Shown here: positions 8,557 to 28,623 of the stretch, piece after piece
How positions within the stretch are numbered: the stretch's first letter is position 1
Layout of the letters: every line of letters begins with the position of its first letter
Origin: an uncultured Candidatus Actinomarina sp.
Lineage (GTDB): Bacteria; Actinomycetota; Acidimicrobiia; Actinomarinales; Actinomarinaceae
Length of the DNA stretch: 64,000 nucleotides
Assembly (NCBI GenBank): GCA_902521955.1
Contig: CABYTP010000001.1
Coordinates: 18,097-82,096, forward strand
Direction: 5' to 3'
Made by a program: the position numbers and the translations under genes
Notes under the pieces: model-generated
What the model was told of the DNA's origin: nothing
What the model saw: only the letters and a program-made list of their open reading frames with translations
Databases searched by the model: none

Positions 8557-8948
8557 TGTATCAAATTTACTGTGATGGTGCTTCAAGATCAAATCCTGGA
8601 GAGGCATCAGTTGGGATATCAATTTTAAAAAATAATGAAGAAATAGATACTATTAAGAAAAGAATAGGCATCGCTACAAACAATGTTGCTGAGTATTTAG
8701 GCTTGATTGAAGCATTGCAATATTGTATTGAAAAGAACATAATGAATGTTGTTATATATTTAGATTCCTTATTGGTCGTTCAACAAGTTAATTTAGAATA
8801 CAAAGTTAAATCAAAAAAACTTCAAGAATATTACAATCAAGCCATCGATTTAATAAATCAAATAAATAAAATAGAAATTAATCATGTCCGAAGAGAATTT
8901 AATAAACGTGCAGATCAGCTAGCAAATCAGGCATTAGATGAACTATGA
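8556..8948 (+). CDS. rnhA: Ribonuclease H (RNase HI-like)
   Basis: N-terminal YCDGASRSNPGEASVGI, carrying the catalytic D-E-D architecture of RNase H. The ATG at 8556 overlaps the upstream stop (TAATG). The ORF track starts 30 nt earlier. Confidence 0.8.
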   Translation: MYQIYCDGASRSNPGEASVGISILKNNEEIDTIKKRIGIATNNVAEYLGLIEALQYCIEKNIMNVVIYLDSLLVVQQVNLEYKVKSKKLQEYYNQAIDLINQINKIEINHVRREFNKRADQLANQALDEL

Positions 8949-9409
8949 TCGTCTGGACTTCAACTATTTCAATTTTTTTATTTAGATATATATTTAAGGA
9001 TTTTAAAGCAGACTTAAGATACATAATCTTAGGAAGCTTTTTTCCAATCTTATTAGATCGATCTTTGTTTTTAATCAATTTATATAATAATCCAATATCG
9101 ATTGGCCATAGCCTATTTGTAACAATTGGATTATTGTTTACGCTTATGATTGTTACGAAAAGAAACAGTAACCTAAGAAACAAATCATTACTTTTTTCTA
9201 TAGGTTCTTTTTTTTATTTAGCTTTAAGTTTCACTTGGCTAAATCAAGAGATATTTCTATACCCAATTTTTACAGGAACAGATGACCTCTTTGAAATTCC
9301 TTTATTTATCAAAGTTATTTTAAATTTTATTGGATTAGGTTACTTTATTTATAAAATAAAAAATCTTGACCAACTTAAGTATTTTTTAAAAGAGGGGAAG
9401 TTTATTTAG
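8945..9409 (+). CDS. Hypothetical integral membrane protein (possibly DUF457-like membrane-bound hydrolase fold)
   Basis: 154 aa with four to five hydrophobic segments and a GHSL motif. ATGA overlap with rnhA. No firm family assignment. Confidence 0.4.
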   Translation: MIVWTSTISIFLFRYIFKDFKADLRYIILGSFFPILLDRSLFLINLYNNPISIGHSLFVTIGLLFTLMIVTKRNSNLRNKSLLFSIGSFFYLALSFTWLNQEIFLYPIFTGTDDLFEIPLFIKVILNFIGLGYFIYKIKNLDQLKYFLKEGKFI

Positions 9410-11162: not shown

Positions 11163-11190
11163 CCCATAAAGAGGCACCCGAGTTTTTGTG
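11163..11190. terminator. GC-rich hairpin GGGTGCC-N9-GGCACCC immediately 3' of rnpB; a T5 run follows on the plus strand
   Basis: 7-bp perfect stem seen directly in the sequence. On the minus strand it abuts the rnpB 3' end and may act as a processing or termination hairpin. The T-run exists only on the plus strand, where there is no upstream plus-strand gene. Confidence 0.4.
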
Positions 11191-11515
11191 AAACTATAAG
11201 CCGGATTCTGTATACGAAAAACGTATGATAATCATCCATCTTGTGTAATTGTTACCAAATACATCTAGCTACTTACCCGCAATTATTAACCGAGCAGGCT
11301 AATTGCTTCTTAGTATTGCTCCAAGAGGGGTTTACAAGCTAATTTGATTACTCAAATTACTGGTGGTCTCTTACACCACCTTTTCACCCTTACTTATTTT
11401 CATAAGCGGTTTGTTTTCTGTTGCACTATCCGTCAATTACTTGCCTGGGAGTTACCCAGCTCTTTGCTCTGTGGAGTCCGGACTTTCCTCGATAAATCGC
11501 GATTATCCGTTTCAC
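11188..11515 (-). ncRNA. rnpB: RNase P RNA (bacterial type A, compact)
   Basis: On the minus strand: the P4 5' strand GAGGAAAGUCCGGACUCC, GGGUGAAAAGGUGGUGUAAGAGACCACC matching the consensus GGGUGAAA.GGUGCGGUAAGAGCGCACC, the 3' consensus ACAGAAUCCGGCUUAU, and a perfect 7-bp P1 between GUGAAAC at the 5' end and GUUUCAC at the 3' end. Confidence 0.85.
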
Positions 11516-11537
11516 ATACTTAGTTTACATAGTAAAT

Positions 11538-19352: not shown

Positions 19353-19938
19353 TATGTATCAATTTTTTTTTCTGAATTTTATCAGGCGACTTCATATTTG
19401 TTTTCTTTTCTACTCCAGCAGTAATCATTCCAATTATTAGATAGTCTTGTGGAATATTTAGTAATTTATGAAAGCTTTTTCTATTGGTATTATGAAGACC
19501 CATAAAACCACTTGAAAGCTTCTTTTCTTCCAGTAGTAACATGCAGTTCATCATTGCAGCTCCAGCATCAATAAACCAATATGGAACATCCCAGTCATTT
19601 GAATTGACTGCCTTTTCTTTGTCGCCTTTTGAGTATCGTTCATGGTAAGCATTTTCATTTAAAACTATAAAAAATAAAGCTACGGAGTGGGATATCCAAG
19701 GACTTTTACCTTGTTCTGTAAATTTTTTCTCATTGAGTAAATTTGATATATTCTCAATTGTATTTTTATTAAAAACCTGCACAACTTCAATGCCACGAGA
19801 AAATCCTGCCGTTGGAATTTTTATAATATAATTAGATATTTTGTCTAAAGAATTTTTATCAAAGTTAACTTTTTTATAATTTCTTACTATTTTTCTACTT
19901 GATAAAAGACTTTCTAAATAAGTTTCAGTATTACTCAT
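19333..19938 (-). CDS. Nitroreductase-family protein
   Basis: N-terminal LLSSRKIVRNY (an RRSxRxF-like motif) and a central PYWFIDAGAAMMNCMLL. Confidence 0.65.
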   Translation of the reverse strand: MSNTETYLESLLSSRKIVRNYKKVNFDKNSLDKISNYIIKIPTAGFSRGIEVVQVFNKNTIENISNLLNEKKFTEQGKSPWISHSVALFFIVLNENAYHERYSKGDKEKAVNSNDWDVPYWFIDAGAAMMNCMLLLEEKKLSSGFMGLHNTNRKSFHKLLNIPQDYLIIGMITAGVEKKTNMKSPDKIQKKKLIHNEKFSK

Positions 19939-20998
19939 TTTTACTTAGTAAAGAATTTAAAACCACATCACCAACTTCACTTGTGCTCATACCCATTTTT
20001 CCTGCAGAAAGAGATTCTAAGCTTATTGCTGTTTTTATAATTGCATTTTCAATATCTTTAGAATATTGTTCCTCACCTAATTCTTTAATCATCATCGCAG
20101 CAGCACCTATACACGCTAGGGGATTAATCACATTTTTGTCAGTATATTTTGGGGCAGACCCACCAATAGGTTCAAACATTGACACTCCTTCAGGATTGAT
20201 ATTACCTCCAGCTGCTATTCCCATACCACCTTGAATCATTGCACCGAGATCAGTTATTATATCTCCAAACATATTATCTGTAACAATTACATCAAACCAT
20301 TCCGGGTTCTTAACCATCCACATACAAATAGCATCAACATGTCCATAATCTGTCTCTATGTTTGGATAATCTTCAGCTACTTCATAAAATATTCTTTCCC
20401 AAAGGTCATGAGCATATGTTAAAACATTAGTTTTAGCACAGAGTGTGACCTTTTTTCTATTATTATTTTTTGCATATTCAAATGCATATTTTATACATCT
20501 GTGAATTGCAAAATATGTATTGATAGACTCTTGGGTTGCTACTTCATTTTTTGTACCGTAGTGAATATATCCGCCTGCGCCAGCATAAAGACCTTCTGTA
20601 TTTTCACGAACTACAATAAAATTAATATCCTCAGGAGTTTTATTTGCTAAAGGTGTTTCCACACCTGGATATAAAACAACAGGTCTTAAGTTTATATACT
20701 GATCAAACTCTTTTCTTAACTTTAATAAGATACCTTGCTCAAGTATTCCAGGTTTTACATCAGGATGTCCTATTGCACCAAGTAAAACTGCATCTGCATT
20801 TTTAAACTGTTGTATATCATTTTCTGTAACAAGTGTTTCAGTTTTAATATATCGGTCTCCACCTAAGTCATTTTCTGAAAAGTTAAACTCTACTCCATAT
20901 TTTTTTTGAGATCCCTCTAAGACTTTGACCGCTTCCCTCACAACCTCTGGGCCTGTACCATCACCAGCTAATAGTGCTATATTTAATTTTTTACTCAT
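19931..20998 (-). CDS. leuB: 3-isopropylmalate dehydrogenase
   Basis: Isocitrate/isopropylmalate dehydrogenase motifs [20 protein letters not shown]. Adjacent to and overlapping leuA. Confidence 0.85.
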
Positions 20999-22485
20999 TT
21001 GTTCAACGCATTCAAAAAGGACTCTACTGATCCCTGTACCACATCAGTGGACACAGCTCGACCTTGTTTCATGAGGTGGCCATCATTAATAATTGTTACA
21101 ATTTCAGCTGTAGCGTCGGATCCTTTAGTTATACTTTCAACTCTATAGTCAATAAGTGTTGCCTCAGATTTAAGTATTTTTTTAACAGCGGTAAAAGCAG
21201 CATGAATCATTCCATCTCCTGTAGCTTCTTCAGTCATCTCTTTATCTCCAACCTTAAGCGTCACTTTAGCAGATGCATATTCATCCTTACTATTAACAGA
21301 TACAGATAAAAGTTTTGTATTACTTTGGTTTGTTTCTACTTGACCAACAATTGCTCTTAATTCATTTTCAACTATTTCACCTTTTCTATCAGCTATTTTC
21401 TTAAAAGTATTGAATGCATTGTCAAAGGAATCACTATCAAGTGTTATATTCAAGTTATCTAATGCATCTTTAAACCCAGCTCTTCCAGAATGTTTGCCAA
21501 GTATGATTTTTGCTTCTTGCCCCACAGAGTCAGGAGACATAATTTCGTAAGTTGAAGTATTTCTAAGATATCCATGCTGATGTATGCCCGATTCATGACT
21601 AAATGCATTTTTACCAACTACTGCCTTATTGAACTGGACTGGATATCCAGTCAATTTAGATACAAGACGTGATGTTTCGAATATTTCAGTTGTCTCAGCT
21701 TTGATATCAACACCAAATTGATCTTGCCTTGTTTTCACTGCCATAATTATTTCCTCTGTTGAGGTATTACCAGCTCTTTCTCCAATTCCATTAATTGCAC
21801 CCTCTATTTGTCGCGCACCTGCGGTTATAGCTGTAAGTGAATTAGCTACCGCCAATCCTAAATCATTATGGCAATGAGTGGAAATAACTACATCTTCATT
21901 TCCACCTTTTACTTGTTCATATACCTGGGTTAAAAGTTCTAAGTAGTCTTGAGGAGTAGCATATCCAACTGTATCCGGAACATTAATAGTTGTTGCACCT
22001 TCTTCAACTGCAGTTTTAAGGACTTCAATCAAAAAATCCTTGTCTGTCCTAGTGGCGTCTTGAGCTGAGAATTCCACATCTTCACAAAGTTTTTTGGCAT
22101 ATTTAACAGATTCTTTAGTGTCCTTTAGAATCTCATCCTTACTTTTTCTAAGCATATGCTCCATATGTATTTCAGAAGTAGATGTAAATACATGAATTCT
22201 TGAATCTTTTGCAACTTTAATTGCTTCCCAAGCTTGCTCAATATCATCCGGATGACATCTTGCAAGGGAAGCTATTGTTGAATTTTTAATATTTTGTGCA
22301 ATTAGATTTACCCCTTCCCAATCTCCAGGAGATGATGCAGCAAAACCAGCTTCAATAACATCAACTTTTAATTTTTCCAACTGTTGAGCAATTAATAGTT
22401 TCTCTGATGGCGTTAAAGCTATACCTGGACTTTGCTCTCCATCTCTAAGAGTCGTATCGAAAATTACTAACTTATCATTACTCAT
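20995..22485 (-). CDS. leuA: 2-isopropylmalate synthase (LeuA/CimA family)
   Basis: N-terminal [20 protein letters not shown]-like barrel. 496 aa including the C-terminal regulatory domain. It is flanked by ilvC and leuB. Confidence 0.8.
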
Positions 22486-23498
22486 TTATCTTTAGCTACA
22501 TCCTTTGCATCAAGAAAGGGCATCATATCTCTTAAGCTTTTTCCTATCTCTTCTATTTGATGCTTAGAAGCTTCTTCTCTTTTCTCTTTAAGAAAAGGAG
22601 ATCCTTCTCTTGCTTGTGACATCCATTCTTTTGCAAATGCCCCAGATTGAATTTCATCTAAAACTTTTTTCATTTCTTTTTTTGTATCACTATTGATAAT
22701 CCGAGAACCTCTTGAAAAATCACCGTATTCGGCTGTATCAGAAATAGAATGTCTCATCCATTCAAATCCTCCCTCGTACATTAGGTCAACTATAAGTTTT
22801 ACTTCATGCAATGTTTCAAAATATGCACTTTCAGGTTGATATCCAGCTTCAACCAAAGTTTCAAATCCATTCTTTATTAGCTCTGTTAAGCCTCCGCATA
22901 AAACAACCTGTTCACCAAATAAATCTGTTTCAGTCTCTTCTTTAAAAGTAGTATTTAAAATTCCAGCTCTTCCACCTCCAATAGCAGAAGCATATGAAAG
23001 TGCAATTTCTTGAGTGTTGCCAGAAGTATCTTTATCAACAGCAACTAGACATGGCATACCACTGCCTTCAGAATAAGTTCTCCTTAATAAGTGACCAGGT
23101 CCTTTTGGAGCAACCATTGCAACAGATAGATCTTCCCTTGGTTCAATCTCATTAAAGTGAATGTTGAATCCATGTGCAAACAATAAGGTAGAACCTTCTT
23201 TCATATGTTGAGCTACATCAGAGTTGTAGACATCTGCCATAACTTGATCGGGGAGAAGCAACATTACAACATCAGAATCTTTGGTGGCATTCTCAAGACT
23301 TGCAACACTTAGGCCCATTTCTTCTGCTCTTTCAAAAGAGGATGAATCTTCTCTTAATCCAACTGTTACATTTACTCCTGATTCATGAAGGTTTAATGCA
23401 TGAGCGTGACCTTGACTTCCAAATCCAATAACTGCAACTTTTAAATTTTTTATTAAGTCTTGATTAATTGATGAGTCATAAATTATTTTTGTTTCCAT
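22482..23498 (-). CDS. ilvC: Ketol-acid reductoisomerase
   Basis: N-terminal Rossmann [13 protein letters not shown] followed by the C-terminal knotted domain. Confidence 0.9.
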
Positions 23499-23507
23499 TT
23501 TCTCTCC

Positions 23508-23981
23508 TTATAGATTTGATTGTATTGCTATTCTTCCGCCTCTTACCATTTCTATTATTCCAAATGGTTTCATTAATTTTTCAAATTTATTTAACTCTTT
23601 AGACGATCCTGTCATTTCGAAAATCGCATAATCTTGACCCACGTCAACAGATTTTGCACTAGATAAATTTGCTTTTTCAATCACAGAAGTTTGGGTATCT
23701 TTATTTATTGACACTTTAAGTAAGAGTACTTCAGTTTCAATTGTCATTTCTGGATCCAGCTCAACTATTTTTATAACATTAACCAATTTATTAAGTTGTT
23801 TTTTAACTTGCTCAACTGCATCTAGTTCAGTAACTATTGTCATTTTAGATCTACCTTCAATATGGGTTGGACCTACAGATAATGAGTTAATATTGAAACC
23901 TCTTCTTGAGATTGTTGAAGATACCCTTGCAAGCACGCCAGGCTTGTCTTCTACTAAAACAGATAATATCCTTTCACTCAT
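23508..23981 (-). CDS. ilvN: Acetolactate synthase small (regulatory) subunit
   Basis: ACT-domain start ILSVLVEDKPGVLARVSS. 157 aa. Overlaps ilvB. Confidence 0.9.
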   Translation of the reverse strand: MSERILSVLVEDKPGVLARVSSTISRRGFNINSLSVGPTHIEGRSKMTIVTELDAVEQVKKQLNKLVNVIKIVELDPEMTIETEVLLLKVSINKDTQTSVIEKANLSSAKSVDVGQDYAIFEMTGSSKELNKFEKLMKPFGIIEMVRGGRIAIQSNL

Positions 23982-25690
23982 AGTTGTTTCAAATCTTCTT
24001 TATTCATAATAATCTGATCATTACTTCCTCCAGCAGGAACCATAGGGAAGACCATATCATCTGGATCAACTACACAATCAATTAACACAGGTTTGTCATT
24101 TATATTTAACATTTCAGTAAATATTTTTTTAACGTCATCTTTTTTTGTCATTCTTAAACCAACAGCACCCATAGATTCTGCAAGTTTTACATAGTCAGGA
24201 GTATGATGTGTTAGTTCAGATGCAGAAAATTTACTGTTATAAAATATTTTTTGCCACTGACGCACCATTCCATGATTCCCATTATTGAAAACTACAACCT
24301 TAATAGGAATATTTTCAGTCGAAGCTGTTATGAGCTCTTGGCATGTCATTTGAAAACATCCATCACCATCTAAAGCTAAAACTAATTTATCTGGAAATGC
24401 TGTTTGAGCTCCGATTGCCGCTGGTAATGAATATCCCATTGTTCCAAGGCCTCCAGAATTTAACCAAGTATTAGGTTCAGTAAAATTCCAATGTTGAGAA
24501 ATCCACATTTGATGTTGTCCTACACCAGATACAACCACAGCCTCTTCTTCTGTAAGATTTTGAAGCTGCTCTAGAACATATGGTACTTTTAATGGCCCGT
24601 CATCTTTCTGGTCATAATTGAGTGGAAAATTTTTTTTCATTTCTCTTAAATCATTAATCCAACTTGCAGTATCTAGCTCAGAGCCCTTTAATGCTTCCGT
24701 CAAGCCAATCAAGACATTTTTGGCATCACCTACAATTGGTACCTGAGCTTCTCGAACCTTTCCTATTTCCGCTGGGTCGATATCTGCATGAATTACTTTT
24801 GCATTTTGTGCAAAAAAATCGGGATTTGCTGTAACACGGTCATCAAATCTAACACCTATAGCAATTAATAGATCTGAATCCTGAATTGAGGTAGTAGCAG
24901 TATAATTTCCGTGCATTCCTGGCATTTCCAAGCAAAGTTCATGTCCATCAGGAAATGCACCCCTTCCCATTAAAGTCGTTACAACTGGAATATTGTATGT
25001 AGTTGCTAAGTCGTAAAGTTCTTTATGAGAATTAGAGTGAATTATTCCGCCTCCTACATAAAGTATTGGTTTCTTTGATGACTTTATCAAATTAGCAGCT
25101 TGTTGAATCATTTTTGGATTTGGCTCTAAAGTTGGTTTATAACCAGGAAGATCTAAATCTTTAGGCTCCACCCAGCCTGTTTTCTGATTTAGTATATCTT
25201 TTGGAACATCTACTAAGACAGGCCCAGGTCTTCCAGATGTTGCAATATATTTTGCTTCTTTGAGGACTTGAGGTATTTCAGATGCATCAGTAATTAAATA
25301 ATTATGCTTAGTAGCTGCCATTGACAATCCTACAGTATATGCTTCCTGAAAGGCATCATTACCAATAGCAGTAGAAGCCACTTGGCCAGTGATTGCCAAT
25401 AAAGGAGTAGAGTCCATAAGTGCATTTGCTAGGGGAGTAATAAGATTTGTAGCGCCAGGACCAGAAGTAGCAATTACAACACCAAGTTCTCCTGTGGCTT
25501 GAGCATAACCTTCAGCCATATGGCCAGCTCCTTGTTCGTGTCTAGCCAATATATGTCTTATTGGACTGTCATATAAAGGATCATAAGCTGGAAGAATAGC
25601 GCCACCAGGAACTCCAAAAACCGTAGAAACATTTAAATGTTCTAAACTTCTTACAATTAGTTCCGCACCAGTAATCAATTCTTTTGTCAT
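23978..25690 (-). CDS. ilvB: Acetolactate synthase large (catalytic) subunit
   Basis: ThDP-enzyme motifs GVPGGAILP and the GDG...NN ThDP-binding block. I place the start at 25690 (MTKELITGAELIV); the ORF track extends 60 nt further into the attenuator. Confidence 0.9.
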   Translation of the reverse strand: MTKELITGAELIVRSLEHLNVSTVFGVPGGAILPAYDPLYDSPIRHILARHEQGAGHMAEGYAQATGELGVVIATSGPGATNLITPLANALMDSTPLLAITGQVASTAIGNDAFQEAYTVGLSMAATKHNYLITDASEIPQVLKEAKYIATSGRPGPVLVDVPKDILNQKTGWVEPKDLDLPGYKPTLEPNPKMIQQAANLIKSSKKPILYVGGGIIHSNSHKELYDLATTYNIPVVTTLMGRGAFPDGHELCLEMPGMHGNYTATTSIQDSDLLIAIGVRFDDRVTANPDFFAQNAKVIHADIDPAEIGKVREAQVPIVGDAKNVLIGLTEALKGSELDTASWINDLREMKKNFPLNYDQKDDGPLKVPYVLEQLQNLTEEEAVVVSGVGQHQMWISQHWNFTEPNTWLNSGGLGTMGYSLPAAIGAQTAFPDKLVLALDGDGCFQMTCQELITASTENIPIKVVVFNNGNHGMVRQWQKIFYNSKFSASELTHHTPDYVKLAESMGAVGLRMTKKDDVKKIFTEMLNINDKPVLIDCVVDPDDMVFPMVPAGGSNDQIIMNKEDLKQL

Positions 25691-25713
25691 AATATAAAGT
25701 TTCTTCCTCTTAT

Positions 25714-25766
25714 TAAAAAAAAACCCCCCGTTTTGGGAGGCGCTCATCACAGCAAAATGAGCGCTA
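25714..25766 (-). promoter_or_regulatory. Transcription attenuator: hairpin GCGCTCAT-N9-ATGAGCGC followed by an intrinsic terminator CCTCCC-AAAAC-GGGGGG-T9
   Basis: Seen directly on the minus strand between the leader-peptide stop and the ilvB start codon. A 9-T run follows the G/C stem. Confidence 0.6.
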
Positions 25767-25814
25767 AATAAGTAATAGCACCAATACTGAAATGAATACA
25801 GCTAAATTTTTCAT
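25764..25814 (-). CDS. ilv leader peptide MKNLAVFISVLVLLLI (16 aa; 11 of 16 residues are Val/Leu/Ile)
   Basis: Read directly from the minus strand: ATG AAA AAT TTA GCT GTA TTC ATT TCA GTA TTG GTG CTA TTA CTT ATT TAG. It lies immediately 5' of a hairpin and terminator, upstream of ilvB. Confidence 0.6.
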   Translation of the reverse strand: MKNLAVFISVLVLLLI

Positions 25815-25843
25815 TAAAATAACTATAGTAAAAGCTTAGAAAA

Positions 25844-26938
25844 ATGAAACATATAAATCTTAATAATTTACTTACTGAAAATTTATTAATTTTGCCTAAA
25901 GAGGTTAGATTAGGGGTTGTTTCATTGCCATCAGGATTAAGTTTCTCTGAGAAAATAGAAAAAATTAAAAAACAAAAGAAGCATGCCAATATGAAATTTA
26001 CCTTTTCAAATCCTAGTTATTCCGGAAAAGCCGATAAATTTGAATGGGCAAATTCAGCAATCATCTTTACTTATGACTATAAGCAGAACAAACAAAACTC
26101 TAATTTAGCTTCTAGTGGTTTTGGTAAAATAGCTGCATTTGCCGAACAAGATTATTATGAACCTTTGAAGAAAATTACTAGTGAATTTGAAAATCTTTTT
26201 TCCAGACTGAATTATAAATTCCATACATTTATTGATAATCCAAATCATTATGATAGAACTTTTTTTGAAATTTCAGGTTTAGGTTGGCAAGGTAAAAGCA
26301 CAATGATGTTAAGCCCAGGAATTGGACCATGGCAACTACTTGGAACTATGTACTCTGACCAGCATTTTGAGCCAACAGAGTCTAAAAATTATTCATGTGG
26401 CGAATGCAATCTTTGTCAAATATCTTGTCCAACCGGAGCATTGGATGAAGATTATATTTTAGATTCAAATAAATGCCTGTCTTATTGGCTTCAATCACCA
26501 GAAACTATTCCATATGACATTAGAACCGCATTAGGAAATAGATTTTACGGTTGTGACGAGTGTCTAATATCATGTCCTCCCGGACAGAACAATAATTTAA
26601 CAATTAATAAAATTAATTCTCACGATGTTGATCTTGAAAGAATTATTATTTCAAGCAATGAAGACCTTTTAGAAAAATATAACTGGTTTTACATTCCTAA
26701 AAGAAACGCAAATTATCTAAAGAGGAACGCAATTATTGCTTTAAGTAATAATCCAAATCACGAAACATATAAATTTTATCTTGAAATTTATAAAATCTTA
26801 CCTGATGACTTGAAGAACTATATTTTATGGGGATTTTGGAAACTAGGAAAAATTAATGAAATTAACTCCTTAATGGATAAAGAAAACAGTGATGACTTAA
26901 AACTTGAATATCAAAAATTAAAAAGTATGACTTCCTAG
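25844..26938 (+). CDS. queG: tRNA epoxyqueuosine(34) reductase QueG
   Basis: Two 4Fe-4S ferredoxin motifs (CGECNLCQISCP and CDECLISCPP), a GLGWQGKSTMML block, and C-terminal HEAT-like repeats. The N-terminal length fits a start at 25844. Confidence 0.8.
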   Translation: MKHINLNNLLTENLLILPKEVRLGVVSLPSGLSFSEKIEKIKKQKKHANMKFTFSNPSYSGKADKFEWANSAIIFTYDYKQNKQNSNLASSGFGKIAAFAEQDYYEPLKKITSEFENLFSRLNYKFHTFIDNPNHYDRTFFEISGLGWQGKSTMMLSPGIGPWQLLGTMYSDQHFEPTESKNYSCGECNLCQISCPTGALDEDYILDSNKCLSYWLQSPETIPYDIRTALGNRFYGCDECLISCPPGQNNNLTINKINSHDVDLERIIISSNEDLLEKYNWFYIPKRNANYLKRNAIIALSNNPNHETYKFYLEIYKILPDDLKNYILWGFWKLGKINEINSLMDKENSDDLKLEYQKLKSMTS

Positions 26939-26961: not shown

Positions 26962-28623
26962 ATGAAAAAAATTTCTGATGACGTCACACAAGGTATTAAT
27001 AAATCTGCAGCAAGAGCAATGTTAAGAGCTGTAGGTTTGAAAGATGATGACTTTAACAAATTTCAAGTAGGTGTAGTTTCTGCTGGAAATGAAGTTACCC
27101 CTTGTAATTTAACTGGTCCAGAGTTATCAGAATTTGCAAAAAAAGGTGTAAATGGTCCTGACTCAGCTGCATTAATCTTTTCAACTATAGCTGTATCAGA
27201 TGGTATTTCTATGGGCCATGAAGGTATGAGAGCTTCGTTAGTTTCTAGAGAGGTCATAGCTGATTCAGTGGAACTAGTTATGCACGCAGAACGTTTTGAT
27301 GGAATGGTAACTATTGCAGGATGTGATAAATCTTTACCTGGTATGCTAATGGCCGCTGGAAGAATTAATAGACCAGCTATATTTTTATATGGTGGAAGTA
27401 GTTTACCGGGGGAGTATCAAGGTAAAGACATCTCAATTGTTGATGTCTTTGAAGGTATTGGCGCTTATGAAAAAGGAATTATTACTAAAGAAGATTTATA
27501 CAACATAGAGTGTGCGGCGTGTCCTGGAGTGGGCTCTTGTGCAGGTATGTTTACAGCAAACACAATGGCTTCAGTTGGAGAAGCAATTGGTATGAGTTTA
27601 CCCGGTACTGCAGCAATTCCTGCTGAAGATTCAAAATTAAGGGAAGCTGCAGTAAAGTCAGGTGAACAATTAAATTATCTTTTAAAAAATGACATAAAGC
27701 CAAGTGACATAATGACAGAGGAAGCATTTAGTAATGCTATCGTGACAGTTTTAGCATTGGGTGGAAGTACAAATGCAGTCTTACATCTTTTAGCAATAGC
27801 TTATGAAACTGGAGTAGGTTTAACGATTGACAAATTTGATGAGCTCAGTAGAAAGGTTCCCCATCTTGCTGACATGAAGCCATTTGGAAAATACCATATG
27901 GTAAATTTAAATGAAATTGGAGGAGTTCCGGTTGTATCAAAGATTTTATTGGAAAATGAATTAATAGATCCTAATTGTTTAACTGTGACAGGAAAAACAG
28001 TAGGAGAAAATTTAGAAAATATTCAAATACCTAAAAACCAAAATGTTATTAGTTTTCCTGACAATCCAATTTCAAGTGAAGGTGGTATTGCAGTATTAAA
28101 AGGAAGTCTGTCTCCAAAAGGTTCTGTTGTAAAAACTGCAGGAATTGAAATAAACAATTTTTCCGGACCAGCAAATGTCTTTAATAGTGAGCAAGAAGCT
28201 TTGGAAGCTTTGTTTAATAATAAAATATCAAAAGGAGAAGTTGTTGTAATTCGCAATGAAGGACCTAAAGGTGGACCTGGTATGAGAGAGATGCTACAAA
28301 TTACAGCAGCAATAAAAGGGGCCGGTTTAGGCAAAGATGTGCTTTTGATTACTGATGGAAGATTTTCTGGAGGAACTACAGGACTATGTATTGGACACGT
28401 TGCTCCGGAAGGGTTTGATAATGGTCCAATATCAGTTTGTCAAAATGGAGATACTATAACACTAGATATTGAAAAAAGAACACTAAATCTTGAAGTTGAA
28501 AAAGATGAAATTGAAAAAAGATTAGAAAATCTTCAACTTCCTTCTCCAAGATACAAATCAGGGGTTCTTCATAAATACTCCAAGCTTGTAAGTGGATCTG
28601 ACACTGGTGCGGTTACAAATTAA
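26962..28623 (+). CDS. ilvD: Dihydroxy-acid dehydratase
   Basis: ILVD/EDD motifs [11 protein letters not shown] and the [15 protein letters not shown] block. Confidence 0.9.

Follow-up and report, generated by a model that had tools for sequence, protein, structure and literature searches.

A conserved branched-chain amino acid leader and terminator upstream of ilvBNC-leuAB in Candidatus Actinomarina

We analyzed a 64,000-nucleotide (nt) stretch of an uncultured Candidatus Actinomarina sp. genome (contig CABYTP010000001.1, hereafter the window), in which a short leader lies between the divergent gene queG and ilvBNC-leuAB, an operon for branched-chain amino acid (BCAA) synthesis. The leader comprises a 16-codon open reading frame (ORF) rich in BCAA codons, a hairpin that opens within its stop codon (P1), and an intrinsic terminator that directly adjoins this hairpin (P2). 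This architecture is genuine and conserved, an ordinary regulatory element of a kind known in other actinobacteria, and it very probably acts as a ribosome-mediated transcription attenuator that couples ilvBNC-leuAB expression to the supply of charged Leu/Val(/Ile) tRNA. A first-pass annotation of the DNA had proposed ribosome-mediated attenuation on the enterobacterial pattern. Conservation, folding with a ribosome mask and validated precedents supported that interpretation, but the nearest likeness was to actinobacterial ilvB leaders rather than to those of enterobacteria.

Leader architecture and conservation

The elements described in the first-pass annotation were present in the sequence: a minus-strand ORF whose UAG lies on the 5′ arm of P1, an 8-bp hairpin adjoining a G/C stem and nine T residues, and a 153-bp region shared divergently with queG (Table 1). 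Two of its numbers required correction. Isoleucine, leucine and valine account for 10 of the 16 leader residues, seven of them in a row at the C-terminus, where 11 had been counted; and the distance from the stop codon to the ilvB ATG is 73 nt, not 75. P1 begins with the G of the UAG stop and ends in the C that opens CCUCCC in the terminator, and G25741 and C25740 are common to P1 and P2. From start to the end of the U-run the leader RNA measures 100 nt (numbered such that nt n is window position 25815 - n). Because no co-directional gene lies upstream, P2 cannot end another transcription unit.

The fold had a z-score of -3.9 against 200 dinucleotide shuffles. A terminator scan returned three matches, all overlapping registers of the same hairpin, against 0.5 expected, and the 32-nt pattern of the P1/P2 junction occurred once in the window against 0.00 expected. 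Only four strong terminators of hairpin plus T-run were found in the 64 kb, P2 among them. A second copy of TAGCGCTC in the window (12651) was at chance level. The leader ORF has no Shine-Dalgarno (SD) sequence and a -10 box lies 7 nt 5′ of its ATG; judging from these sequence features, it is therefore probably leaderless.

Every one of the 18 Actinomarinales relatives with intergenic DNA in front of ilvB has the same architecture. Conservation was seen in 6 distinct genome or metagenome relatives and in 10 more, across ilvB identities of 74-95%; twelve additional loci were fetched via ilvB protein clusters. In the six close relatives, an invariant ACTATAGTTA box sits 7-8 nt 5′ of the leader ATG, there is no SD sequence, and the stop is always UAG. 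The upstream ORF (uORF) of this close clade keeps its length of 16 codons and its frame; its N-terminal half varies, while the C-terminal half stays Leu/Val. The motif UAGCGCUC-N13-GAGCGCCUCCC is invariant among the close relatives, the outer 6 bp of P1 being constant and the loop variable, and the terminator has a loop of 4-8 nt followed by the nine-U run (eight of the nine U in L162). GUGCU occurs at two alternative codon positions in these relatives. The rare Val codon GUG makes up 11 of 14 leader Val codons in the close clade, compared with 13% in genes.

In a divergent Actinomarinales clade (ilvB identity 74-76%), the uORF is shorter, with 10-11 codons (MNNTILLVVLM, with GUA GUA), and a canonical TTGACA-N16-CATACT promoter precedes its ATG by 7 nt. 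The inner P1 stem of this clade is GCGCACUUA/UAAGUUGCGC, the GCGC|CUCCC junction is unchanged, and its region 1, the segment within the uORF that pairs with P1, is ACUUAUG and pairs with the P1 3′ arm.

We then searched 152 ilvB loci, mostly from Acidimicrobiia metagenome-assembled genomes spanning 27-75% GC, with a three-part descriptor: a uORF with at least four I/L/V in its last eight codons, a hairpin opening no more than 4 nt from the uORF stop, and a C[CU]UCC...GG[AG]GG hairpin no more than 6 nt from the first hairpin. The descriptor matched upstream of ilvB in 112 of the 152 loci and nowhere in the 1.15 Mb that served as control (the rest of the same loci, both strands). The first-pass annotation had made its reading depend on conservation of the mini-ORF and hairpins in related genomes, and both were kept in the Actinomarinales relatives with an ilvB intergenic region and in these Acidimicrobiia loci.

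Across this family, P1 opened within the stop codon in 105 of the 112 leaders, and its 36 different outer hexamers included every pair type, so P1 is conserved as a structure and not as a sequence. At least 96% of leaders had I/L/V residues at codons -2 to -5, and only 18 of 109 had one at the last sense codon; beyond this run the peptide sequence was not conserved, and its length ranged from 8 to >20 amino acids (aa). GUA supplied 60% of leader Val codons and 4% of those in the adjacent ilvB genes, a 15-fold enrichment that peaked at codons -4/-3. It often stood in a recurring CUC GUA GUA motif (loci L005-L160). The stop was UAG in 99 of the 112 leaders; pairing of its G (or AG) in P1 explains this preference only in part.

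A -10-like hexamer peaked 7-9 nt 5′ of the uORF start, and the full -35/-10/start pattern was present in 53 of 110 leaders against 4 of 884 shifted control anchors. SD-like tetramers preceded the uORF in just 10 of 110 leaders. The scarcity of SD-like tetramers, taken with the promoter-start geometry, argues that the uORFs are leaderless or nearly so. The distance from P2 to ilvB varied between 15 and 236 nt, and the ilvB SD sequence was itself variable.

The P2 stem CCUCC(C)/(G)GGAGG was kept from 27% to 75% GC while P1 covaried freely (L005-L160). A strong terminator elsewhere in the window (60354-60318) has the stem CTCCTCC-AACT-GGAGG plus a T-run, with the motif found on both strands, and may act bidirectionally. 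We rejected CCUCC/GGAGG as a leader-specific signal since this terminator has the same motif; the stem may instead be a general terminator preference of the lineage. A family covariance model was abandoned, as MAFFT left P1 and the P2 3′ arm out of register. RNAalifold recovered only five pairs on the family, and a hand-built alignment would be circular.

Table 1. Coordinates of the leader elements and of the operon in the window. Genes are from the ORF list, with NCBIfam matches above curated cut-offs. MFE, minimum free energy.
Feature	Position	Strand	Description
Leader ORF	25764..25814	-	MKNLAVFISVLVLLLI, 16 codons + UAG; ATG 25814-25812, UAG 25766-25764
Regulatory codon run	25767..25787	-	Codons 10-16, GUA UUG GUG CUA UUA CUU AUU (V L V L L L I)
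Region 1	25777..25782	-	GGUGCU inside ORF (codons 11-13); pairs with AGCGCU at P1 start (MFE folds); predicted anti-antiterminator
Hairpin P1 (regions 2:3)	25740..25764	-	GCGCUCAU / loop UUUGCUGUG / AUGAGCGC; 8 bp, 9-nt loop; arms GCGCUCAU 25764-25757 and AUGAGCGC 25747-25740; -13.3 kcal/mol
Terminator P2	25723..25741	-	G-CCUCCC / AAAAC / GGGGGG-U; 7 bp, -11.3 kcal/mol; arms CCUCCC 25740-25735 and GGGGGG 25729-25724
U-run	25715..25723	-	Nine U (T); completes the intrinsic terminator; ends 24 nt before ilvB ATG
SD-like sequence of ilvB	25703..25711	-	AAGAGGAAG
-10 hexamer	25822..25827	-	TATAGT, core of palindrome AACTATAGTT; 7 nt 5′ of leader ATG
Weak -35-like region	25845..25850	-	GTTTCA / TTTCAT; overlaps queG start codon; placed by 16-17 nt spacing to the -10
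queG-ilvB intergenic region	25691-25843		153 bp; divergent, queG start 25844 (+)
ilvB	25690-23978	-	ATG at 25690
ilvN	23981-23508	-	
ilvC	23498-22482	-	
leuA	22485-20995	-	
leuB	20998-19931	-	

Predicted coupling of translation to termination

Under the mechanism that we propose, transcription from the TATAGT -10 would start at or 1-2 nt from the leader AUG, and the ORF would be translated as a leaderless mRNA. With Leu and Val plentiful, the ribosome would reach UAG and cover the P1 5′ arm, so that the full P2 with its nine U could form and transcription would halt ~25 nt before ilvB. Under a shortage of charged tRNA, the ribosome would stall with codons 10-13 (V L V L) in the A-site, its leading edge just short of P1 and region 1 hidden beneath it. 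P1, the proposed antiterminator, would then be complete and would remove G25741 and C25740 from the terminator base by the U-tract. This would leave a 5-bp terminator with the rigid P1 helix directly against its base, and RNA polymerase would read into ilvB. Without translation, region 1 would pair with the start of P1, the shared bases would be free, and termination would be the default. We infer the transcription start, the stalling and the effect on termination in this model.

We folded the 100-nt leader RNA by partition function, placing a 30-nt ribosome mask at each codon in turn, and the predicted states were consistent with this scheme. With no ribosome or an early one, region 1 paired with AGCGCU, the two outermost P1 pairs were open and the full 7-bp terminator formed (closing-pair probability 0.76-0.99). 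With the A-site at codons 10-12, region 1 was masked and P1 was fully closed, holding G74 and C75, and the closing-pair probability of the terminator fell to 0.08-0.28; closure of P1 shortened the terminator to 5 bp and changed its energy from -11.3 to -7.3 kcal/mol. Codons 13-14 gave intermediate closing-pair probabilities, and a ribosome at codon 15, codon 16 or the stop masked the P1 5′ arm and restored the full terminator (0.85-0.99). Folding with the mask reproduced the three classic states. Mutual exclusion of the 2:3 and 3:4 pairings, for which the first-pass annotation had suggested a fold prediction, is marginal, as just 2 nt are shared.

The three-state prediction was also obtained in relatives, including the divergent clade with its different region 1. 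The duplex between the codon run and the P1 arm had a z-score of -2.2 against shuffles, in Actinomarinales only. A ribosome that covers ~12 nt 3′ of its A-site codon and stalls at codon -4/-3 would have its leading edge exactly at the P1 base, and one on the stop codon must melt the P1 5′ arm. Some MFE folds paired the leader 5′ AAAAAA with the U-run; we rejected this pairing because the U-run would be in the RNA:DNA hybrid at decision time, and the A-run was also not conserved in the wider family. The thermodynamic case for switching is suggestive but not conclusive.

Several results weigh against attenuation by the switch set out above. P1 and the terminator of the window share 2 nt only, the competing states lie ~1 kcal/mol or less apart, and 8-50% full terminator was still predicted with the ribosome stalled. 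Little or no switching was predicted in L162, L168 and L170. The Actinomarinales-related contig L171 (ilvB 72% identical) is without any leader, owing to a co-directional gene whose end lies just 41 nt before its ilvB, and the attenuator is lost or bypassed in at least this one lineage. In roughly three of every four leaders of the wider family P1 and P2 have no nucleotide in common, and in high-GC relatives (P1 of -16 to -23 kcal/mol) the terminator was predicted in every ribosome state, with no conventional antiterminator in the mask partition functions. Since most of the family lacks P1/P2 sharing and the terminator is predicted there wherever the ribosome stands, base-pair competition cannot be the general mechanism. 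Furthermore, mutation of the putative regulatory codons of Streptomyces coelicolor ilvB had no effect (cited in PMC1262725).

Alternative explanations and known systems

Conserved alternative pairing was sought among the uORF codon run, the uORF 5′ part, the arms and loop of P1, and the arms and tail of P2, in all combinations. In 103 leaders no pairing was enriched over shuffles, and none was found outside Actinomarinales; complementarity between P1 and P2 arms was if anything avoided. The P1-P2 gap lay between -2 and +7 nt in 117 of 118 leaders, with up to 80 nt allowed, and this tight upper limit argues that P1 acts directly on P2. P1 could also serve as a pause hairpin without conflicting with the data, but that role leaves the upper spacing bound unaccounted for. 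These observations, together with the prediction of P2 in all ribosome states and the scarcity of shared nucleotides, speak for a possible steric block, with the same parts and the same sensing, in which the intact P1 hinders termination without competing for bases. A helix 0-7 nt from the P2 base could not follow the 5′ arm into the RNA exit channel, and the closing pairs on the U-tract side would be barred; a ribosome on the stop would melt P1 and lift the block, and the 2-nt sharing in Actinomarinales would be merely accessory. We regard this explanation as possible though doubtful. Classical attenuators do have an upstream hairpin that coexists with the terminator, but at a larger spacing, and we know of no experimental precedent for a block of this kind. 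Nearest-neighbour folding is blind to steric effects, and in Mycobacterium tuberculosis the two structures are called mutually exclusive by the authors who described them (PMC13236596). The broader proposal, that Acidimicrobiia ilvB leaders are an attenuator design without a base-paired antiterminator and with steric abutment as the main mechanism, is unlikely. If it held, the window element could be the most compact form of the design, at the extreme of the gap series, its 2-nt overlap a secondary reinforcement in an AT-rich streamlined genome. Such a steric variant is not known to have been described for leader-peptide attenuation, and it might explain the old puzzle of actinobacterial ilvB leaders with a leader peptide plus terminator but no antiterminator.

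The remaining explanations dispense with a stalled ribosome acting on termination. The hairpins and T-run could be a constitutive, unregulated partial terminator or insulator, the mini-ORF being due to chance or encoding a small hydrophobic membrane peptide. The peptide is indeed hydrophobic like many small membrane proteins, and thermodynamic switching is marginal; yet the element is specifically associated with ilvB (112/152 loci against none in the control), the peptide is conserved solely in its I/L/V run and not in length, rare Val codons are enriched, the stop codon sits on the P1 base, and homologous designs in Mycobacterium and Corynebacterium are regulatory, all of which makes this very improbable. 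Translational attenuation, in which uORF translation would remodel the RNA and expose or hide the ilvB ribosome-binding site, is equally hard to credit. CCUCCC resembles an anti-SD sequence and could pair with the window ilvB SD (GAGG), and such a role has been proposed for leaderless uORFs that precede mycobacterial genes for cysteine biosynthesis (PMC13236596). Against this, the hairpin with its nine-U tail is a canonical terminator and is conserved, CCUCCC is already engaged in the P2 stem, and neither the ilvB SD nor its distance from P2 is constant. We likewise rejected GGGAGG of P2 as the ilvB SD and CCUCCC as a mask for it, given the 15-236 nt distance and the lack of conserved complementarity. 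Least probable of all, and only barely credible, is that P1, as the inverted repeat GCGCTC-N13-GAGCGC, is a protein or ligand site (an operator in the DNA, or a riboswitch or similar element in the RNA) through which the bound factor controls the terminator. Within the close clade neither the outer 6 bp nor the 13-nt spacing varies, covariation is absent, and a ppGpp riboswitch governs ilvB in some Firmicutes (PMC10272879). However, P1 sequence is free across the family and its loop unconserved, as fits a plain helix, 25 nt is too small for a known aptamer, and riboswitch and T-box models gave no match in the window or in 19 relatives.

Ribosome-mediated transcription attenuation also has the closest precedents, with experimental validation of the same design for M. 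tuberculosis ilvB1 and for Corynebacterium ilvB (PMC10272879). In M. tuberculosis, ilvB1 is preceded by an abundant ~120-nt terminated leader RNA with a translated uORF whose regulatory codons are LVVI (GUA); changing LVVI to AAAA abolishes induction, and ribosome stalling lets the antiterminator form, whereas a ribosome that has reached the stop prevents it (Eckartt et al., Nat Microbiol 2026; PMC13236596). The M. tuberculosis ilvB1NC leader and the window leader come from the same phylum and have the same first gene, a short BCAA uORF with an L-V-V-I-type run a few codons before the stop, a hairpin, predicted in the case of the window, that depends on stalling and is blocked by a stop-codon ribosome, and a Rho-independent terminator with a U-tract before ilvB. 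The stalled footprint in M. tuberculosis is centred on GUA, a codon that is likewise predominant in the Acidimicrobiia family and in the divergent Actinomarinales clade. The run in the window is placed in the same manner, as a stall at codons 10-12 would leave P1 free and a ribosome at codons 15, 16 or the stop would mask it. The two differ in their stop codons (UGA in M. tuberculosis, UAG in the window and 88% of the family) and in length, the M. tuberculosis U-tract ending at +126 and ilvB starting at +168. The antiterminator and terminator are called mutually exclusive in M. tuberculosis, whereas the overlap is 2 nt in the window and none in most Acidimicrobiia. By its published description, rather than base by base, the M. 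tuberculosis ilvB1 leader is the system with which the window element is best filed.

The Corynebacterium ilvB leader resembles the window element in having a BCAA uORF of 15-17 codons without a ribosome-binding site, two stem-loops, and P2 as a terminator with a U-run, and it is repressed in rich medium. The C. glutamicum ilvB leader is reportedly translated without a ribosome-binding site. In the published ilvB-II motif the uORF is within P1, P2 is the terminator, and the antiterminator is formed by the P1 loop and P2 3′ shoulder (Narunsky et al. 2023; PMC10272879). In that motif most of P1 lies within the span of the uORF; in the window the uORF ends at the P1 5′ base, and there is no complementarity between loop and P2. 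BCAA uORFs were also described for the ilvB-OMG and Leptospira ilvB motifs (PMC10272879). Neither CCUCCC nor GCGCCUCC occurs in the published ilvB-II and ilvB-OMG alignments, and the window leader has no sequence similarity to the Corynebacterium motif.

For the ilvB upstream regions of Corynebacterium, Mycobacterium and Streptomyces, Seliverstov et al. (2005) described "candidate leader peptides with terminators"; they saw no clear antiterminator and called the mode of regulation "not clear" (PMC1262725). Those ORFs are likewise short, with I/V/L runs and adjoining poly-U terminator hairpins. They overlap the terminator hairpin, however, whereas the window ORF stops on a separate hairpin adjoining the terminator; that survey did not include Acidimicrobiia or Actinomarinales.

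With the enterobacterial ilvBN, ilvGMEDA, leu and trp leaders the window element has in common the three-state logic, predicted for the window, of termination without translation, read-through on stalling and termination at the stop. Rare regulatory codons are also known there, as with CUA in the E. coli leu leader. In the classical leaders an SD sequence precedes the uORF, and antiterminator and terminator have a whole arm in common; the window uORF is probably leaderless, its leader is far shorter, and only 2 nt are shared.

At the gathering level of Rfam 15, the window had no match except RNase P RNA, and the loci of the 19 relatives had none. The leader families Leu_leader, Phe_leader, His_leader, Thr_leader and Trp_leader, and any ilvB motif in Rfam 15, thus stayed below their gathering thresholds; a permissive scan of the window gave Phe_leader as the best sub-threshold match, with 18.2 bits against a 55-bit cut-off. 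The RNase P RNA is of bacterial class A (11181-11518, minus strand; 279 bits, RF00010). A Phe-rich mini-ORF in the window, MNYDRLDFNYFNFFI, with a weak hairpin and T-run (8945-9037, plus strand), was considered as a Phe leader and found spurious, as it lies inside a 154-aa coding ORF (8945-9409). Among the papers searched, none combined Actinomarina and attenuator.

Gene context and significance

In this genome of ~31% GC, the ilvBNC-leuAB operon occupies 19931-25690 on the minus strand, and its neighbouring genes overlap or almost abut. Identities of the window ilvB are 81-82% with Candidatus Actinomarina genomes, 88% with a metagenome contig and 95% with a protein cluster, which places the window in an Actinomarinales bacterium (class Acidimicrobiia, Actinomycetota). 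On the plus strand, queG begins at 25844 and is followed by IlvD (NCBIfam). The gene for the latter, ilvD (26962-28623), belongs to the BCAA pathway and lies 23 nt 3′ of queG, on the opposite divergent arm. It has no leader of its own and is thus apparently outside the attenuator's control.

The first-pass annotation had placed the ilv promoter over the queG 5′ end. A weak -35-like region does fall on the first codons of queG, with a 3/6 consensus match only and no call by the promoter scan, but the -10 box is intergenic. That box, AACTATAGTT (25821-25830), is a perfect palindrome that presents TATAGT on both strands and occurs a single time in the window. On either side of it lie divergent start codons, that of the ilv leader at 25814 and that of queG at 25844, and it was found at the same place in 12 of 12 close-clade loci. 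It may be the common symmetric -10 of a bidirectional promoter that serves queG-ilvD in one direction and leader-ilvBNC-leuAB in the other.

The attenuator brings Acidimicrobiia into the range of the actinobacterial leaderless ilvB leader; the 110 or more examples there are absent from Rfam and can serve as a seed for annotation. The family also provides a natural series, with gaps of -2 to +7 nt and 27-75% GC, for studying how a stop-codon hairpin acts on an adjoining terminator. For Actinomarina itself, it would mean that even one of the smallest free-living marine bacteria keeps a cis-acting, protein-free feedback on Leu/Val/Ile synthesis, fitted into 100 nt of a 153-bp divergent region of its streamlined genome.

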